Assembly: GCA_018817715.1 (NCBI GenBank)
Contig: JAHITT010000001.1
Span: 109,781 to 173,780, forward strand
DNA from: Patescibacteria group bacterium
GTDB lineage: Bacteria > Patescibacteriota > Patescibacteriia > Veblenbacterales > UBA10138
Direction of reading: 5' to 3'
DNA length: 64,000 nt
Both the position numbers and the translations under genes were made by a program. Each line of letters opens with the position of its first letter. Within the stretch, counting starts at the first letter, position 1. Shown piece by piece: positions 4,813-20,106 of the stretch. The notes below the pieces were generated by a model. It ran no database searches. It was not told where the DNA came from and worked only from the letters and a program-made list of their open reading frames with translations.

Positions 4813-5748
4813 TTAATCTATTTTAACACCAAAACTAGTAATTTTCTTACTAGACCGTCTTTTAATTGGTTTATTTTTTTGAACCTGTGCTCTAATTTGT
4901 TCGGTAAAGTCATTAATTTTTTGATTGTCTGAATTTACCTCGCGTAAAACATCTAAAGCTTCCTGTGCCTCGTTCAGATGCCCATTTACTATACTGAGTT
5001 CTATATAAAAGTCAAGCACTTTAGGGCTATTAGGCTCCAATTCTCGAGCTTCAGTCAAATGAGCTAAGGCCTGATTAAAATCACCTAATTGTTGATAGAC
5101 ATAAGCCAACTCCAAATGGAGCTGAATAGTATTTTTAAGAGCCAAACTTTTAAGATACTGACCCTTAGCTTCTTCTAAAAAACCCTGACCTTGAGCTACT
5201 TTAGCTAAACCCAAAGAAGAATAACGAGCCCGACCTTGTTCTGCTAAATATTCCAAAACTTCTTTAGCTTGCTCGTAATCTCTAGTTTCCAAATACACAT
5301 CAGCCAAGCTTTGATAAATATCCAAATTAGTTGGCTGGTGTTGAATAGCGCTTAAATATAAATTCTCTGCTTCGGCTAAATCCCCTTCCTGCTTAGCCTG
5401 CTCAGCCTTGTTTAAAATTTTTGCCACTACTTCCTCAACTTTACCCAAAGATACTTCCTGCTGAGCCACCTTCTCTTCCATTTGTTGAACAGATTGTTTT
5501 AACTGATCCTGTTTGAACTGAATTTTTTTATACCAAGGATCAAATTGTTTTTTAAGCCAACGCTTGCCTCTTTGTAACTTACGCTGTAAACGAGCTTCCA
5601 CTAAATCTTGTTTAACTTCTTGCTGTTTTAAACCGCTTAAATTATCCACATCAATTAATTTAAGGATGGGAAACTTACCAATAGCTAAAACAATCAAACC
5701 TACTAGACCCAACAACAAAACTATAACCAAAATAATATCGATTACCAT
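4813..5748 (-). CDS. membrane-anchored TPR-repeat protein
   Basis: N-terminal TM helix, then a coiled-coil region, then several TPR-like repeats (AEAENLYLSAIQHQP, YQSLADVYLETRDYEQA, LELAYVYQQLGDFNQA). Confidence 0.55.
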   Translation of the reverse strand: MVIDIILVIVLLLGLVGLIVLAIGKFPILKLIDVDNLSGLKQQEVKQDLVEARLQRKLQRGKRWLKKQFDPWYKKIQFKQDQLKQSVQQMEEKVAQQEVSLGKVEEVVAKILNKAEQAKQEGDLAEAENLYLSAIQHQPTNLDIYQSLADVYLETRDYEQAKEVLEYLAEQGRARYSSLGLAKVAQGQGFLEEAKGQYLKSLALKNTIQLHLELAYVYQQLGDFNQALAHLTEARELEPNSPKVLDFYIELSIVNGHLNEAQEALDVLREVNSDNQKINDFTEQIRAQVQKNKPIKRRSSKKITSFGVKID

Positions 5749-5751
5749 AAT

Positions 5752-6534
5752 TTACAACTGCTTTAATAGCTGACTAAATCTATCTTCCTGTAAACTGGCT
5801 CCACCCACTAACACACCGCTCAACGGCCAATCACTCAAACAAGTGGCAATATTACTAGCATCCACACTACCGCCATAAACCAATCTAACTTGACCGCTTA
5901 ATAATTTGGAGCTGGAAAAAATATCTACCAAAGTCTGTCCGATTACTTGAGCAGTATGAATCAATTCCTGATTATCAACGGCCTGACCAGAACCAATCAC
6001 CCAAACTGGCTCATAAGCCACCACCACCCGCTGATCTTTAGTTAAAGACAAGCCAGCCAAAGCTTGCTGAATTTGACGAGAAATTATTATATCTTTACGT
6101 CCAGCTTGACGTTCGGCAAAAGTTTCGCCCACACAAACTACTGGCACTAAACCAACGGCTAAAGCCGCCGCGACTTTATGCTTAATCATTACATCAGTCT
6201 CTTTTAAATACTGACGCCTTTCTGAATGACCAATCAACACATAACTAACCCCTGCTTCAACCAAAACAACTGGCGACACCTCACCAGTATAAGCTCCAGT
6301 AGATTGCCAAAAAATATCCTGAGCGCCCAATTTTATCTTAGATTTAAGCAAACTCTTAGCTACTGGCCATAAAGCGGGAAAAGTCGGACATAAAACCAAT
6401 TCCAAAGATTTTTTAGTTTGTAATGATTTATAAGACTTAAGAATTTTTTTAGCCAAAATCACACTGTCTTTAATCGACAGATTCATTTTCCAATTAGCTA
6501 TTATTAAAGATGCGGAAGAATTAGACATAATCAT
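5752..6534 (-). CDS. tpiA: triose-phosphate isomerase
   Basis: IANWKMN, GHSERR, YEPVWVIGSG and VYGGSV motifs. Confidence 0.9.
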   Translation of the reverse strand: MIMSNSSASLIIANWKMNLSIKDSVILAKKILKSYKSLQTKKSLELVLCPTFPALWPVAKSLLKSKIKLGAQDIFWQSTGAYTGEVSPVVLVEAGVSYVLIGHSERRQYLKETDVMIKHKVAAALAVGLVPVVCVGETFAERQAGRKDIIISRQIQQALAGLSLTKDQRVVVAYEPVWVIGSGQAVDNQELIHTAQVIGQTLVDIFSSSKLLSGQVRLVYGGSVDASNIATCLSDWPLSGVLVGGASLQEDRFSQLLKQL

Positions 6535-10023: not shown

Positions 10024-10686
10024 TTACAACAACTTAACATGATTAATAACTATACCAAAACGCCAACCCAACACCTCAGCCGCTTTACGACAATAAGCCA
10101 TCCGTTCGCTAAAAATTTGAAAATATTCCATCAAAGGAGCTCGATTAACATCAATAATCAATTTTAAAGTAACAATCTTATTTTTAGCATCAATTTTTAA
10201 TTGATTGTCAGTCACTGCGTAATTAAGACGGTCGTGAATATCTTTTTTTAAATTAGCTGGGCTGGGATTAATAACGCGACTACGCCGAACATCCGATTTA
10301 TCGGCAATAATCAAACAAGCTGCTATTTTGCTAGGAATTTTTATCTCATCTTTATCGTGAGCCACAATGGCCTGCGTAACTACAGCTAAATCTCGAGGAG
10401 TCATTTTGTCACGAAAAGTTTCATGAAACATTATACCCGCCCAATAATGATGCTGAGTCCGACCCAAAAAATTAGCCATATCATGGCACCAACCAGCCAT
10501 AGCCGACAATTCCTGTTGGCGTTTAGGTAATTTAACGGCCTGAGCCAAAGCTTGAGCCCGCTCGGCCACAATGGCCACATGCTTAAAACCATGGTCGGTA
10601 AAACCTAACCAGGCCATATAATCCTGAGTCTGCTGAATATATTCCGTTATATAAGGGTTACTTTTTATATCTTCAAAGGTAATCAT
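10024..10686 (-). CDS. HD-domain metal-dependent phosphohydrolase
   Basis: HGFKH ... CHDMANF ... HH ... AHDKDE pattern of HD motifs. Confidence 0.7.
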   Translation of the reverse strand: MITFEDIKSNPYITEYIQQTQDYMAWLGFTDHGFKHVAIVAERAQALAQAVKLPKRQQELSAMAGWCHDMANFLGRTQHHYWAGIMFHETFRDKMTPRDLAVVTQAIVAHDKDEIKIPSKIAACLIIADKSDVRRSRVINPSPANLKKDIHDRLNYAVTDNQLKIDAKNKIVTLKLIIDVNRAPLMEYFQIFSERMAYCRKAAEVLGWRFGIVINHVKLL

Positions 10687-12677: not shown

Positions 12678-13976
12678 TTACGGCCTTAACCTGTTAAGCA
12701 ATCTGGGAAACGGAATGCTTTCTCGAATATGCTTTAAACCACACAGCCAAGCCACAATTCTTTCCAAACCGTAACCAAAACCAGAATGCGGCACTGAACC
12801 ATACTTTCTTAAATCTAAATACCAACCAAAATCACTGAGTGATAAATTATGTTCCAACATCCGTTTTTTTAATTCTTCATAATTATCTTCACGCTGACTA
12901 CCGCCAATTATTTCACCATAACCTTCCGGAGCCAACAAATCAGCGTTCAGCACTCTAGTTGGATCACTTGGATCCCGCTTCATATAAAAAGCCTTAACCT
13001 CGGCTGGATATTTTTCCACAAAAACCGGCCGATCATACATTTTAGTCAAAATTGTTTCATCATCCGCTCCTAAATCATCCAAATCACCTATGTCGCTACC
13101 CTGCTGTCTTAATTTATTAACGGCTTCAAGGTGAGTTAATCTGTAAAATGGTGCCTTAATATTTTGCAAAGGAGTTAAATCACGTTCCAAGATTTGTAAC
13201 TCAGTTAAATTATCTCGCAAAACAGCTTGAACAATAAAAATTATTAAAGCTTCTTGAATTTTTAAATTGTCTTCATGTTCAACAAAAGCTGCCTCGGCAT
13301 CCATCATCCAAAATTCTATTAAATGCCGACGGGTCTTGGATTTTTCTGCCCGAAAAACCGGCCCAAAATCAAATACTCGCCCCAAGGAACTAATAGCCGC
13401 TTCCAAATACAACTGCCCAGATTGAGTTAAATAAGCTGGCTCGCCAAAATAATCCAATTCAAATAAACTAGTTGTACCCTCACAAGCTGTGGGTGTTAAA
13501 ATTGGTGAATCAAATTTAATAAACCCCTGACTGTTCAAATAACTAAAGGTGGCGTTAATAATGGTATTACGAACTCGCTGAATTGCCCATTGCCTAGATG
13601 ATCTTAACCACAAATGACGATTGTCCAACAAAAAATCCGGGCCATGCTCTTTTTTGCTTATGGGATATTCGGCAGCTAAAGAAATTATTTTTACCTCCGT
13701 AGCCTGCAATTCATACTGTTCCAATTTAGGATGCTTAGCGACCACCCCCACCACACTTAAAGACGACTCTATAGTTAAAGCCTGACAATCAACTAAACTA
13801 GCAGCCGCCACCTTAGCGGCATCTACTACCACTTGGCTAAAACCAAAACCATCTCTAACTTGCAAAAACCAAATTTTACCCGAAGATCGACTATTAACCA
13901 GCCAGCCCTTAATTTCGACTGTTTGACCTAAAAAATCCTTTAATTGATGGGATTTAACATACTGCATAGTCACCAT
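12678..13976 (-). CDS. asnS: asparaginyl-tRNA synthetase
   Basis: FRAEKSKTRRHLIEFWMMDAE, GGSQRE and GFGYGLERIV motifs. Confidence 0.85.
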   Translation of the reverse strand: MVTMQYVKSHQLKDFLGQTVEIKGWLVNSRSSGKIWFLQVRDGFGFSQVVVDAAKVAAASLVDCQALTIESSLSVVGVVAKHPKLEQYELQATEVKIISLAAEYPISKKEHGPDFLLDNRHLWLRSSRQWAIQRVRNTIINATFSYLNSQGFIKFDSPILTPTACEGTTSLFELDYFGEPAYLTQSGQLYLEAAISSLGRVFDFGPVFRAEKSKTRRHLIEFWMMDAEAAFVEHEDNLKIQEALIIFIVQAVLRDNLTELQILERDLTPLQNIKAPFYRLTHLEAVNKLRQQGSDIGDLDDLGADDETILTKMYDRPVFVEKYPAEVKAFYMKRDPSDPTRVLNADLLAPEGYGEIIGGSQREDNYEELKKRMLEHNLSLSDFGWYLDLRKYGSVPHSGFGYGLERIVAWLCGLKHIRESIPFPRLLNRLRP

Positions 13977-14113
13977 AGTATACTATTTTTCCTTTAAATT
14001 GGCAAAAAATACTCCTTAAAATTAAGATCTTAAATCTAAACTAATTATCAATTACTAAAAACTCTTACTCTTATTCCTAGCTTGTGTTATTCTAAATCTC
14101 ATTAAGCTTAAGT

Positions 14114-14599
14114 ATGCTAGAAAAAATAAAACAATTAACTTGGAAATTATTCGAACCAATCTTCCCGTCAGTCAGAGATTTTTGGGTTTTCTTGGGATTT
14201 ATTAAACATTCGACCAGACAGCCTCACCTATTAGGTAAATTAAAACCTGGACTAACTAAAAAATCTTTGCGGACCAAATTAAACTTGGCTGGCTTCAGCG
14301 ATGATTATTTGGCTTGGATAGATCCAGACGAAATATTAAATATGCGGAAAATCGTTAAAACAATTTACCAATATCACGTTCGACTATTTTTAGACGGTGA
14401 AATTAGAGGACACTACGAATATACAGCAGAAAGTCACCCTTTTAAACATCTTTACGATAAGGGTATGACAGATGGTCGGGATTATTTGCTACCTCTTTTA
14501 CAGGATCTACTACTACCCGAAGTGGCCAAATTAAATCCCAAATCGCCGCCGCCACATTCTGAGGATTCCCTCTTAAAGGAAAATGATGCAAATCAATAA
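14114..14599 (+). CDS. hypothetical protein (161 aa); 3' end overlaps the convergent ATP-grasp gene by 158 nt
   Basis: Long ORF with an upstream intergenic region. No recognisable motif. The long convergent overlap makes the exact C-terminus, or even reality, uncertain. Confidence 0.3.
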   Translation: MLEKIKQLTWKLFEPIFPSVRDFWVFLGFIKHSTRQPHLLGKLKPGLTKKSLRTKLNLAGFSDDYLAWIDPDEILNMRKIVKTIYQYHVRLFLDGEIRGHYEYTAESHPFKHLYDKGMTDGRDYLLPLLQDLLLPEVAKLNPKSPPPHSEDSLLKENDANQ

Positions 14600-15722
14600 A
14601 AGGTAAACTATTGCATTCAATTATTCCTGAACCCGGCTGTTCTTGCCAAGGCCGACTAATATCCTCCAAAATCATATCAAAACCGATAATTGAATCAGCT
14701 ACCACACTGGCTGCTCGTTCGAATAATAACCTGTTTTGCGGATGAACCTGATCGGTTACTTCAATAGTCGCGCCACCCAAACCACGATTAACTTTGCGAT
14801 TTAAAAAAACCCTAGTTCCTGGCCCGGGCACCGATAACCAATTATAGCCTTGGCTAGTTAATTCTGATTCTGTCTCCTGATTTTTAATCACTGGGGAAAA
14901 AACTTCCGCTTGACCAGACTTTTGCTGATTAATCTGATCAACCAATTGATCAATAGTACTTAAACCGTCGCCTAATACACTGGCTAATTCCCGGCGAGCT
15001 ACGGCTTGCAATTTTAATTTAATTACCGTAGCTCGATGAACTTCACCTGTTAACTGCTCTTCAATTATCACCCAGGGGCTAATTTTTTGCGCTGAATAAA
15101 AAGCCTTAACCAATTGACTACGGGTCATAATATTACTAAAAGTATGACGACTTCTGGAACCAAACCTTGGTTTAACGATTAAAGGACCACCTAACTTATC
15201 AAAAATACTAAGGGCTTTTTTTACTAAAACCGCGCTACCGCCACGAGCAATCGGTAAACCAGCCGCCTGAAATTTTTGGCGCATAATAGCCTTGTCATCC
15301 ATCCAAGATAAACCAATTGTTGGACCAACTGGTCGAGGTAAGCCGTCAAAAATATAATAATGACCGTTTAGACTAGCTACCATTATATCAGTTGGTCTTT
15401 TAAACAAACGCCACTCTTTTAAAACAATACCGCGCCTTAAAGCCTCTTGCCACAAAACTTTAGTACGTGAATTATGATCGGGTCTTAAATCTTCAACTAT
15501 CTCCGCTAAACCCAATCGGGCGGTTCCCAACATAATTGTATAAGCCAACTTATGCCAAGCCCGACTAAGCCTAAGTGGCTGAAAAAAGACAGCGATTTTC
15601 TCCAAAACTTTTATATAGGGCTTAAGTAGTTGATCAATCAAACTGGTCCACCAAGCTAAACGATGAGAAGTTGGCGCTGAACCACAATCAACACAAATTG
15701 TTTTTCTTTTAATTTTAGACAT
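14442..15722 (-). CDS. cyanophycin-synthetase-like ATP-grasp protein (CphA N-domain plus ATP-grasp domain only, no Mur-ligase domain)
   Basis: LIVKPRFGSRSRHT, HPQNRLLFERAASVVADSIIGFDMI, GIIECNSLP and RGNPQNVAAAIWDLIWP align by eye with the N/G domains of CphA. N-terminal CVDCGS Cys pair. Confidence 0.6.
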   Translation of the reverse strand: MSKIKRKTICVDCGSAPTSHRLAWWTSLIDQLLKPYIKVLEKIAVFFQPLRLSRAWHKLAYTIMLGTARLGLAEIVEDLRPDHNSRTKVLWQEALRRGIVLKEWRLFKRPTDIMVASLNGHYYIFDGLPRPVGPTIGLSWMDDKAIMRQKFQAAGLPIARGGSAVLVKKALSIFDKLGGPLIVKPRFGSRSRHTFSNIMTRSQLVKAFYSAQKISPWVIIEEQLTGEVHRATVIKLKLQAVARRELASVLGDGLSTIDQLVDQINQQKSGQAEVFSPVIKNQETESELTSQGYNWLSVPGPGTRVFLNRKVNRGLGGATIEVTDQVHPQNRLLFERAASVVADSIIGFDMILEDISRPWQEQPGSGIIECNSLPFIDLHHFPLRGNPQNVAAAIWDLIWPLRVVVDPVKEVANNPDHLSYPYRKDV

Positions 15723-15843
15723 AACTGATTTCTGATTGTAACAATTGACCTAAATAAAGTAAACAACTTTAACACAAAATATCAACAACAAACTACCAAT
15801 TTTGGGTATTAGTCAAGACCGCTAACTGGTAAACAACTTATAG

Positions 15844-16482
15844 CTATTCAACTTTACGGTTTAAAATTTTTTGTTTAAACCATCTTTTAAAGACTTGACG
15901 ACTTTTACTATCGCCCAATAATTGCCACAAAACAGGTAAAACAGAAAAAACAATTATAGCCAAAATTATTAGCAATAAATACTTATCTGCCTGGGGCAAA
16001 ATAGTACCCAAATAATAACCCAAAATAGTTACACCAATGGCCCAAAAAAAACCACCGACTAAATTATAAACAATAAAAGTCCGATAGTGCATGCCACCAA
16101 TACCAGCCAAAATCGGCGCCAAGGTACGAACACCAGGAATAAACCTGGCTAATATAATAGTCTTACCACCGTGCGTCTGATAAAACGCTTTGGCTTGTTC
16201 CAAACGCTCTTGCTTAAAAAAGAATGAATCCGGTCTAGTAAAAAAATTACGACCGACCCTCTTACCAAACGTATAACCAACACTATCACCTAAAACAGCC
16301 GCACTAAAACACAGTATAACCAACCAGCCAATATCAAAATAACCCTGGGCCGCTAACAAACCGGCGGTAAAAAGCAAACTGTCACCAGGAAAAAAAATTC
16401 CCACCAAAACACCTGACTCGGCAAAAATAACCAACCACAAGCCTAAATATCCAGCAGCAATTATAAAATCTCTTAAATCCAT
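15844..16482 (-). CDS. DedA/SNARE-associated (VTT domain) membrane protein
   Basis: FAESGVLVGIFFPGDSLLFTAG...LGDSVGYTFGKRVG signature. Confidence 0.8.
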   Translation of the reverse strand: MDLRDFIIAAGYLGLWLVIFAESGVLVGIFFPGDSLLFTAGLLAAQGYFDIGWLVILCFSAAVLGDSVGYTFGKRVGRNFFTRPDSFFFKQERLEQAKAFYQTHGGKTIILARFIPGVRTLAPILAGIGGMHYRTFIVYNLVGGFFWAIGVTILGYYLGTILPQADKYLLLIILAIIVFSVLPVLWQLLGDSKSRQVFKRWFKQKILNRKVE

Positions 16483-19068: not shown

Positions 19069-20106
19069 TTATTCAACCGAAATAAAATGTTTAACTAACT
19101 GAATCATTATATCCTTTTGTTTGGGCTGGCTGGAAGCCACCAATAAAGCCAAAGCTACCAAAGTAGTATCGGCTATTTTCCTTTGGCCTTTTTTATTTAG
19201 TAAATAATTATTCCTAGCCAAATATATTATTAACAAAAAAGAAGCGATTCTTTTATTACCATCCACAAAAGGATGATCCTTAATAATTAAATAAAAAAGA
19301 TGAGCTGCTTTATCTTCTAAACTAAAATAAAGTTCCCGGCCAGCATAAGTTTGGTTAACAGCTGCTAAAATACCAACTAAAGAATTACTTTTATCCAAAC
19401 CAAATAAGTCGCTAGCCTGCTTTTTATCAACCAATTGATTCTTTAACTCACTGATAGCCGGCACCGCCTGATCATAGGACAAACGATATTTAATGTTTTG
19501 CAACTCCTTAGCCAAGGCCGGTAAAACACCTTGATCGTAACTGTGAAGCAATAACCAAGACTGAGTATAATCGGTTATAACTTGAAGCAAACCAATCGCC
19601 TCTTCTCTGTCTAAATAACGATTAAGTAAAGTATTTTGTAAAACACTAACCGCTTGCTCTAATTTTTTAAAACTTAAACCAGTTTGGTCTTTAAGACGAT
19701 TTTGATTAAGAGTAAAACCTTGCACTAAATGGTCTTTTAAAACCTTACTGGCCCAAACTCTAAATCTAGTCCCCTGTTTGGAATTAACCCGATAGCCCAC
19801 AGAAATAATGGCATCTAAATTATAATACTCTAAAGCGCGTTTTATCTGACGATTTCCCTCATTTTGAACTGTTGCATATTTGGCAACAGTTGCCGACTTG
19901 TTAAGCTCCTTTTCCTTATAAATATTGGTTAAATGGCGGGAAATTACCGACTTATCCCGATTAAATAAATCGGCCATTTGTTGCAAGGTTAACCAAACCG
20001 TATCTTTATTTAAACGAACTTCTAAAGAAGAAATTTTACCTGTTGGTTGATAAATAATAACTTCACCTCGATTGACTATTGATTTGTTATCTTTACTAGT
20101 GGCCAT
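19069..20106 (-). CDS. RhuM-family N-terminal domain fused to a Fic/Doc domain
   Basis: The N-terminal YNLDAIISVGYRVNSKQGTRFRVWASKVLKDHL is classic RhuM (PF13310). The C-terminal HPFVDGNKRIASFLL is the Fic motif HxFx(D/E)GNxR. Confidence 0.7.
   Translation of the reverse strand: MATSKDNKSIVNRGEVIIYQPTGKISSLEVRLNKDTVWLTLQQMADLFNRDKSVISRHLTNIYKEKELNKSATVAKYATVQNEGNRQIKRALEYYNLDAIISVGYRVNSKQGTRFRVWASKVLKDHLVQGFTLNQNRLKDQTGLSFKKLEQAVSVLQNTLLNRYLDREEAIGLLQVITDYTQSWLLLHSYDQGVLPALAKELQNIKYRLSYDQAVPAISELKNQLVDKKQASDLFGLDKSNSLVGILAAVNQTYAGRELYFSLEDKAAHLFYLIIKDHPFVDGNKRIASFLLIIYLARNNYLLNKKGQRKIADTTLVALALLVASSQPKQKDIMIQLVKHFISVE

Follow-up and report, generated by a model that had tools for sequence, protein, structure and literature searches.

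The locus described here raises the question of why two genes, one for a 426-residue ATP-grasp protein and the other for a 161-residue protein of an unnamed family, converge and share 158 nucleotides (nt) at their 3' ends. Both lie in a 64,000-nt stretch of a Patescibacteria group bacterium genome (assembly GCA_018817715.1, contig JAHITT010000001.1, positions 109,781 to 173,780), which was analysed at its full length and is called the window below. In window coordinates, the ATP-grasp gene occupies 14442..15722 on the minus strand and the small gene 14114..14599 on the plus strand, each with an ATG start, and the shared segment, 14442..14599, is read by the two genes in different frames. Our listing of open reading frames (ORFs) reproduced the coordinates and the overlap reported in a first-pass annotation made from the sequence letters, and the motifs LIVKPRFGSRSRHT, HPQNRLLFERAASVVADSIIGFDMI and RGNPQNVAAAIWDLIWP that it had singled out, along with an N-terminal CVDCGS, were all found in the 426-residue translation. 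Having compared both proteins and their gene order with those of relatives, we lean, by a modest preference, towards the view that the two genes encode two components of a single ligase system, ATP-dependent, specific to Patescibacteria and of the carboxylate-amine (amide-forming) type, with the overlap as a by-product. In such a system, the ligase would activate a carboxylate as an acyl-phosphate and then join an amine, and the small protein would assist it as a subunit, whether accessory, substrate-presenting or regulatory, and would bind an anionic ligand or a metal.

The argument for a coupled pair begins with gene order. An ATP-grasp profile scan of a metagenome collection, followed by hidden Markov model searches on six-frame ORFs, yielded 77 non-redundant ATP-grasp loci, 66 of which carried at least 500 nt of downstream sequence and were informative in this respect. 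The small-family gene was found downstream of the ligase in 44 of the 66 (67%), an outcome that settles the question, left open by the first-pass annotation, of whether the pair is kept across relatives, and in all 44 it lay on the opposite strand in a convergent arrangement. Forty of these pairs were adjacent, within 300 nt, and four were separated by 1-2 kb; 23 pairs overlapped by 4-163 nt and 17 were gapped by 4-176 nt. Ligases with only 41-44% identity to that of the window still kept a convergent partner (hhalign probability 99.9, E 1e-32), and the two families are alike in size (741 clusters for the ligase and 767 for the small protein). When neighbouring ORFs from 83 loci were clustered, the small family was the only recurrent neighbour family. 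A DedA/VTT neighbour was rejected as a functional partner, being kept only in close relatives (6 of 83 loci), and no link between VTT and ATP-grasp proteins of this family is made in the Lipocone/VTT paper; likewise, a ComF/PilMNO neighbourhood seen in about 20 loci reflects sub-clade synteny only, and adjacency to the genes for asparaginyl- and aspartyl-tRNA synthetases (AsnRS, AspRS) was treated as synteny only.

The argument continues with fusions, in which the ligase and the small domain reside in one polypeptide, the ligase always N-terminal and the small domain C-terminal. Three 50%-identity clusters have this architecture, represented by P0216 (553 residues), P0243 (561 residues) and P0260 (482 residues, N-terminally incomplete); their ORFs are uninterrupted on their contigs, and residues 2-399 of P0216 match the full-length ligase family, including its cysteine motif, by hhalign (E 3e-57). 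The genomic context of the fused genes (gyrB; ATP synthase epsilon plus a CsoR-like gene) was uninformative. Fusions of this type are classical Rosetta-stone evidence of joint action, and they reinforce the earlier suggestion that the ligase and its partner form a module. That the two genes stay next to each other in divergent genomes, and in some lineages encode a single polypeptide, points to a coupled pair.

With regard to the larger protein, which is identical to the record 'hypothetical protein KKC17_00715 [Patescibacteria group bacterium]', a Pfam search gave nothing significant. Among the NCBIfam profiles, residues 136-400 match positions 207-473 of the 871-position cyanophycin synthetase profile (E 9e-62), with scores of 209.3 bits for NF010623 and 200.1 bits for TIGR02068 against cut-offs of 877 and 850; residues 87-400 match positions 435-753 of the 756-position GshAB profile (126 bits against a cut-off of 425), and residues 84-402 match the N-acetylglutaminylglutamine (NAGGN) synthetase profile TIGR03103 (E 4e-31, 108 bits against a cut-off of 569). 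A sequence search of the PDB gave CphA1 (7lg5, E 1e-37), CphA2 (7ta5, E 3e-26) and GshAB (E 1e-18). Cyanophycin synthetase is built from an N, a G and an M domain, the last being Mur-ligase-like, with an active form in CphA1 and a truncated one in CphA2 (PMC10273328). For the M domain, we found that only a 24-residue disordered tail follows residue 402 of the 426-residue protein; for the N domain (residues ~1-160 of CphA), there was no sequence match before CphA residue ~206 and no Pfam match. A cyanophycin synthetase identity was thus rejected, given that only the G-like part is present and the scores are far under the cut-offs. The NCBIfam and PDB matches bear out the first-pass description of a stand-alone CphA-like ATP-grasp protein without the Mur-ligase half; the CphA-like N domain in that description is not borne out, as residues 1-75 carry a family-specific C-x2-C-x6-H motif and helical extension. 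As to a Ddl-type or RimK-type enzyme, the alternative that the same annotation had wanted checked by profile search, the protein was found to be neither: it scored 15-24 bits with the Ddl, RimK and LysX profiles against cut-offs of 143-276 (for RimK, 18 bits against 143; for D-alanine--D-alanine ligases of the Ddl/Van type, the cut-off is ~243-262 bits). On the strength of these sequence matches, we conclude that the 426-residue protein is a stand-alone ATP-grasp protein of the GshF/CphA G-domain clade.

The family to which this protein belongs comprises at least 741 homologues or clusters at E<=1e-10, almost all of 390-430 residues and from Patescibacteria or unclassified metagenome-assembled genomes (MAGs). 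Members at 40-55% identity share the cysteine motif and the helical extension and end soon after a conserved '(W/F)P' at about residue 400. The motif, C10-x2-C13-x6-H20 (15663..15695, minus strand), has its C10, C13 and H20 conserved at 90% or above in family alignment A2, recurs in distant ligase members, fused proteins and truncated mini-ORFs, and is a possible partial zinc knuckle. The extension, residues 20-69 (15516..15665, minus strand), is modelled by AlphaFold2 (AF2) as helices 20-32, 34-46, 48-51 and 54-69 at a predicted local distance difference test (pLDDT) score of 85-97. The segment that aligns to GshAB and NAGGN synthetase starts further on, at residue 84-87, and that aligning to CphA at residue 136. 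In the literature that was searched, on Patescibacteria (the candidate phyla radiation, CPR) with ATP-grasp, cyanophycin synthetase or peptidoglycan, we found no description of either the ligase family or the small family.

To relate the putative active site to that of CphA1, residues were mapped by the PDB-search alignment, with invariance taken from the 47 sequences of A2 and with the roles of CphA1 residues taken from PMC9427784. The catalytic body, residues 84-402 (14517..15473, minus strand), was delimited by the invariant columns of A2 and the mapping onto CphA1, and contains K184, the P-loop G188-H193, R230, R244, K310, R313, D349, E369, N371 and D377. Invariant K184 corresponds to K261 of CphA1, which contacts the ATP phosphates, invariant R230 to R309, which stabilises the acyl-phosphate and the oxyanion, invariant R244 to R323, which binds the beta-carboxylate of the substrate Asp, and invariant D349 and E369 to the Mg2+ ligands D431 and E450; invariant N371 aligns with N452, as an aligned position only. 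The residues expected of an active ATP-grasp enzyme, i.e. the lysine, the Mg2+-binding Asp/Glu/Asn and the acyl-phosphate arginine, are therefore in place, and the protein is an intact member of a clade whose enzymes turn a peptide or amino-acid carboxylate into an acyl-phosphate. Among the substrate residues of CphA (E215, H267, N394, R458, R309 and R323), only R309 and R323 have kept equivalents. E215, which binds the Arg side chain of cyanophycin, is replaced by S139; the P-loop histidine H267 is replaced by R190, within a G-S-R-S-R-H loop (residues 188-193; 15144..15161, minus strand) that is invariant in the 47 family members and stands in place of the CphA1 P-loop D-G-N-H-G-R; N394 of the specificity loop falls in a variable column, and its neighbours T392 and L395 are replaced by invariant K310 and R313; and R458, which holds the alpha-carboxylate of the incoming Asp, has become an invariant D377, a reversal of charge. 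G456, an oxyanion contact, is replaced by invariant F375. We infer that the 426-residue protein is an active carboxylate-amine ligase whose substrates are other than those of CphA. The substrate would not be cyanophycin or aspartate because the Asp-holding Arg is now an invariant Asp, the cyanophycin-binding acid is lost and a new Lys and Arg occupy the specificity loop; the altered pocket (D377, K310, R313 and GSRSRH) possibly accepts an amine without a free alpha-carboxylate plus an anionic moiety.

The 161-residue partner is a conserved protein as well, which answers the earlier doubt as to whether this ORF is kept in relatives: it has 32 close homologues at 49-81% identity, and a profile search with its family gathered 210 clusters when sequences are grouped at 50% identity and 767 when they are grouped at 90%. 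Among the 120 best matches listed, lengths are ~141-184 residues, mostly ~165, the entries are without a name or called 'hypothetical protein', and the named ones come from Patescibacteria lineages. Searches of Pfam, NCBIfam and the PDB with this protein, including a 52-sequence profile against the PDB and a member-by-member Pfam search at E<=1, found nothing, and a Foldseek comparison of its AF2 model with the PDB gave no fold match (best E-value 0.22). In the model (pLDDT 78), a helix at the N-terminus is followed by a beta-alpha-beta3-alpha domain, and residues 140-161 form a disordered tail; the conserved core, residues 1-129 (14114..14500, plus strand), was defined from alignments A1 and A3 and the AF2 secondary structure. 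Within it lies the motif QYHxRxF-DGExRGHxE-x3-E-x-HP-x2-H. In the diverse 52-sequence alignment, E102 is invariant and R35, G41, L56, R78, Q86, Y87, H88, R90, E96, H100, E106 and H112 are conserved at 90% or above. By strand alternation only, Q86, H88 and R90 are predicted to lie on one face of the sheet with R98, H100 and E102, and this conserved Arg/His/Glu face suggests a site for an anionic ligand or a metal. The partner is a conserved, uncatalogued His/Glu/Arg-rich alpha/beta domain of an unnamed Patescibacteria family.

For the overlap, the first-pass annotation had proposed either that one ORF is mis-called or that the overlap is real and possibly regulatory. The former is rejected since both proteins are conserved families. 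The latter stands in part: as ORFs the two genes do overlap, and the overlap recurs in all 13 related loci with the small gene, at lengths of 61-158 nt with that of the window the longest, and the full-length pairs among these loci overlap in the same relative frame. It does not appear to be selected in both frames, since each half of it consists of a variable tail lying over the conserved end of the other gene. The conserved core of the small protein ends at about 14500 and that of the ligase at about 14517, so that the cores are ~16 nt apart. On one side, the variable C-terminal tail of the partner (residues 130-161 plus stop; 14501..14599, plus strand), antisense to ligase residues 375-408, varies in length and has 16-41% identity to relatives with many gaps, vs. 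64-82% for the ligase core (residues 375-402) beneath it. On the other, the variable C-terminal tail of the ATP-grasp protein (residues 403-426 plus stop; 14442..14516, minus strand), antisense to partner core residues 110-129, has 0-67% identity to relatives and is absent in those of 403-405 residues, vs. 50-85% for the small core beneath it. Both tails (residues 140-161 of the small protein and the ligase tail) are predicted to be disordered, with an AF2 pLDDT below 50. With one frame conserved per half, these comparisons do not point to dual coding under purifying selection on both frames. The TAA stop of the small gene (14597-14599) lies opposite the ligase codons for F375 and I376, within the invariant PFIDLH motif; the end of the tail is therefore set by synonymous codon choices in the ligase that create the stop.

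A rough gene map of the window contains eight convergent junctions, with overlap only at that of the small gene and the ATP-grasp gene and gaps of +28 to +527 nt at the other seven. A terminator scan of the window overlap found no terminator-like hairpin. In non-overlapping relatives, which are the more distant ones, 15 sequences taken from loci gapped by 30-300 nt were tested; most of the gaps held a very stable palindromic hairpin flanked by A and T tracts (z -4 to -11), and these hairpins look like bidirectional intrinsic terminators. Near-perfect palindromic hairpins were seen after the ATP-grasp stop in L078, L074, L087, L091, L067 and L052. We surmise that each frame would run on as a variable disordered tail to the first stop inside the other gene, and that the overlap would take the place of the bidirectional terminator-like hairpin between the genes of non-overlapping relatives. 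The overlap is best explained as a tail extension of abutting convergent genes and not as dual coding or a dedicated regulatory element, and read-through antisense transcription is plausible in this genome.

Several observations weigh against placing both proteins in one ligase system. No small gene occurs within ~4 kb in 22 of the 66 ATP-grasp loci, and one lineage keeps a well-conserved small gene beside a 107-117-residue, catalytically dead ligase remnant, from which it follows that the partner can be retained where no active ligase lies beside it. No fold match was found for the small protein, which makes any role for it conjecture. In addition, genes for the subunits of one enzyme are not usually arranged in strict convergence, a layout that would suit an antagonistic or mutually regulated pair too. 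Such a pair, with the small protein as a metallo-hydrolase or inhibitor that undoes or holds back the action of the ligase, and with the convergent layout giving reciprocal antisense control or transcriptional interference that would let just one of the two genes be expressed at any moment, is in our judgment unlikely. It would account for all 44 loci being convergent and for the frequent overlap of their 3' ends, for H88, H100, E102, E106 and H112, which resemble a metal site, and for a window overlap in which the lack of a terminator-like hairpin would leave read-through transcripts mutually antisense; ligase-amidase fusions exist elsewhere, glutathionylspermidine synthetase/amidase being an example. 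However, fusion in one polypeptide forces equimolar co-expression of the two supposed antagonists, the strong bidirectional terminator-like hairpin insulates many relatives so that antisense overlap is not conserved, and no hydrolase fold was matched by the small protein.

Three further explanations were weighed. That CphA1 and CphA2, in which the G domain by itself carries out chain extension, are among the closest characterised relatives, and that R230 and R244 (R309 and R323 of CphA1) are conserved, would fit a minimal polymerase in which the G-like domain extends a poly-amino-acid (a cyanophycin-like backbone or a RimK-like tail) and the small protein acts as primer, anchor or substitute for the N domain; this we hold to be quite unlikely, since the N and M domains of CphA are absent, E215 and R458 have given way to S139 and invariant D377, and the variable, disordered C-terminus of the small protein would make a poor defined acceptor. 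That C-terminus, non-conserved and without a conserved acceptor residue, argues also against the small protein being the substrate of the ligase, whether as a precursor resembling those of ribosomally synthesised and post-translationally modified peptides or as a carboxylate-tagged protein as in the RimK-S6 and LysX-LysW pairs; since the small protein is moreover a folded domain with enzyme-like invariant residues, and is found fused to the unrelated MurB and to glycosyltransferases of families GT2 and GT4, we consider a substrate role very improbable. Lastly, one of the two ORFs, or the overlap, might be an artefact of ORF mis-calling, of a frameshift or of faulty sequencing. Long convergent overlaps in annotations are often mis-calls, and the overlap in the window is the longest among the 13 related loci; with both proteins in conserved families, the same overlap in the same relative frame in independent assemblies and recognisable counterparts of both tails elsewhere (for that of the small protein in P0005, P0006 and P0009, for that of the ligase in the relatives L004 and L001), the chance of such an artefact is close to negligible. 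We thus retain, at the modest strength given above, the reading of two parts of one amide-forming ligase system.

Comparison with known systems helps to place this putative ligase. The G domain of CphA1 and CphA2 (7lg5, 7lgm and 7ta5) is alike in its ATP-grasp fold with a Gcore, Glid and Gomega-like layout, in ~26% identity over ~320 aligned residues and in the ATP lysine, the Mg2+ ligands, R309 and R323, which are kept; the present protein differs in lacking the N and M domains (209 bits vs. 877), in having GSRSRH for DGNHGR and the changes E215 to S, R458 to D and G456 to F, and in its C-x2-C-x6-H helical extension and separate partner protein. The C-terminal ATP-grasp-like module of GshF/GshAB (3ln7) differs in that there is no gamma-glutamylcysteine ligase half here, identity is only 20%, and a partner protein is unknown in GshF systems. 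NAGGN synthetase (TIGR03103), which combines GNAT and ATP-grasp domains, is homologous over the whole ATP-grasp body (residues 84-402), but the GNAT domain is missing here and the taxonomic range and context are different. RimK, and LysX/ArgX with the LysW carrier, belong to a subfamily of ATP-grasp enzymes that is far more remote; their substrates S6 and LysW end in a defined acidic C-terminus, unlike the partner described here, with its variable disordered C-terminus and enzyme-like conserved residues.

As to what might be ligated, a pathway hint comes from the other fusions of the small domain: to the N-terminus of a GT2 glycosyltransferase (Glycos_transf_2) in P0156, to the C-terminus of MurB in P0221 (L099, 43-1473) and to the C-terminus of a GT4 glycosyltransferase (Glycos_transf_1) in P0257. 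MurB, GT2 and GT4 all use UDP-sugars and work in the cytoplasm on the synthesis of envelope precursors. It is because the same small domain is fused to these enzymes that we speculate that the substrate may be a nucleotide- or lipid-linked cell-envelope precursor, a more speculative step than the pairing itself, and one against which it counts that each of the three fusions is represented by just one 50%-identity cluster, seen on a short contig. The speculation also draws on analogy with glycosyltransferase-coupled ATP-grasp amidoligases in capsule synthesis: the C-terminal amidoligase of Cj1438 in the Campylobacter jejuni capsule, a TupA-like ATP-grasp fused to GT2, amidates an envelope-glycan carboxylate (PMC11800379). 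The likeness would be one of function only, in that the partner domain here is fused to GT2, GT4 and MurB; the TupA-like subfamily was not detected as a homologue, and the coupling here would be indirect, via the small domain. In its fullest form, this idea is of a Patescibacteria-wide two-component amidoligase, not described before, that decorates an envelope precursor (e.g. UDP-MurNAc or the peptide stem that it bears, or else a sugar acid linked to a nucleotide or a lipid), with the new 160-residue His/Glu/Arg domain as a precursor-binding or metal-dependent module, a possibility that we put forward tentatively and regard as rather doubtful.

The setting of the pair in the window deserves a brief description. 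The window has ~37% G+C and its genes are mostly on the minus strand; in close relatives, the gene order is AspRS (minus), AsnRS (minus), small gene (plus), ATP-grasp (minus) and VTT/DedA (minus). The small gene is the lone plus-strand gene within a long run of minus-strand genes, and transcription reading through from the ligase gene would proceed antisense over it towards AsnRS. Promoter-like hexamers occur on both strands of the 137-nt, AT-rich divergent intergenic region (13977-14113) that separates AsnRS (minus) from the small gene (plus). The hexamer pairs that precede the partner gene (13993..14028, plus strand), and a promoter-like site with a TG extension that precedes the ATP-grasp start (15735..15763, minus strand), come from a consensus scan only, each with 9 of 12 matches, and are not evidence of function. 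An Rfam search of 13500-16000 gave no match. Elsewhere in the window, a RhuM/Fic-type protein of ~345 residues (19069-20106, minus strand) and an HD-domain-like protein of 220 residues (10024-10686, minus strand) are syntenic with relative L001, the Pfam labels being those of the L001 homologues.

Some of the related loci have features of their own. In a Veblenbacteria-like lineage, an intact and conserved mini-ORF of 107-117 residues replaces the ATP-grasp gene (L003, 6411-6734, minus strand, with equivalents in L006, L009, L010, L011 and L014). It keeps the N-terminal C-x2-C...H motif and ligase residues ~160-226, in which VKP is changed to VEP, so that the ATP lysine is lost, and it still overlaps the 3' end of the small gene by 61-91 nt; the mini-ORF may be a maintained non-catalytic remnant, possibly the partner-contacting part. 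In L085, a single ATP-grasp gene is followed downstream by two tandem small-family genes (5128-5655 and 5659-6174, minus strand), a sign that the partner was duplicated locally. L006, L011 and L012, where the synteny is the same and the small protein is 52-67% identical to that of the window, carry this locus of Patescibacteria type under records titled 'uncultured Gammaproteobacteria bacterium' MAGs, which are probably mislabelled or derived from a contaminated bin.

Patescibacteria make up a large share of bacterial diversity and have tiny genomes with many lineage-specific families without a known function. The analysis links two hypothetical-only families, of ~750 clusters each at 90% identity, as one conserved module with recognisable chemistry. 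What is new is the N-terminal extension on a stand-alone GshF/CphA-G-like ATP-grasp protein together with an uncatalogued partner domain across Patescibacteria, and the long convergent overlap, explained without a special dual-coding or regulatory role, provides a clean worked example. If the two-component amidoligase acting on an envelope precursor were true, it would define a CPR-specific envelope modification whose domain is also plugged into MurB and glycosyltransferases; should the envelope hint hold, this would be a cell-wall or surface modification relevant to the episymbiotic lifestyle of CPR bacteria.

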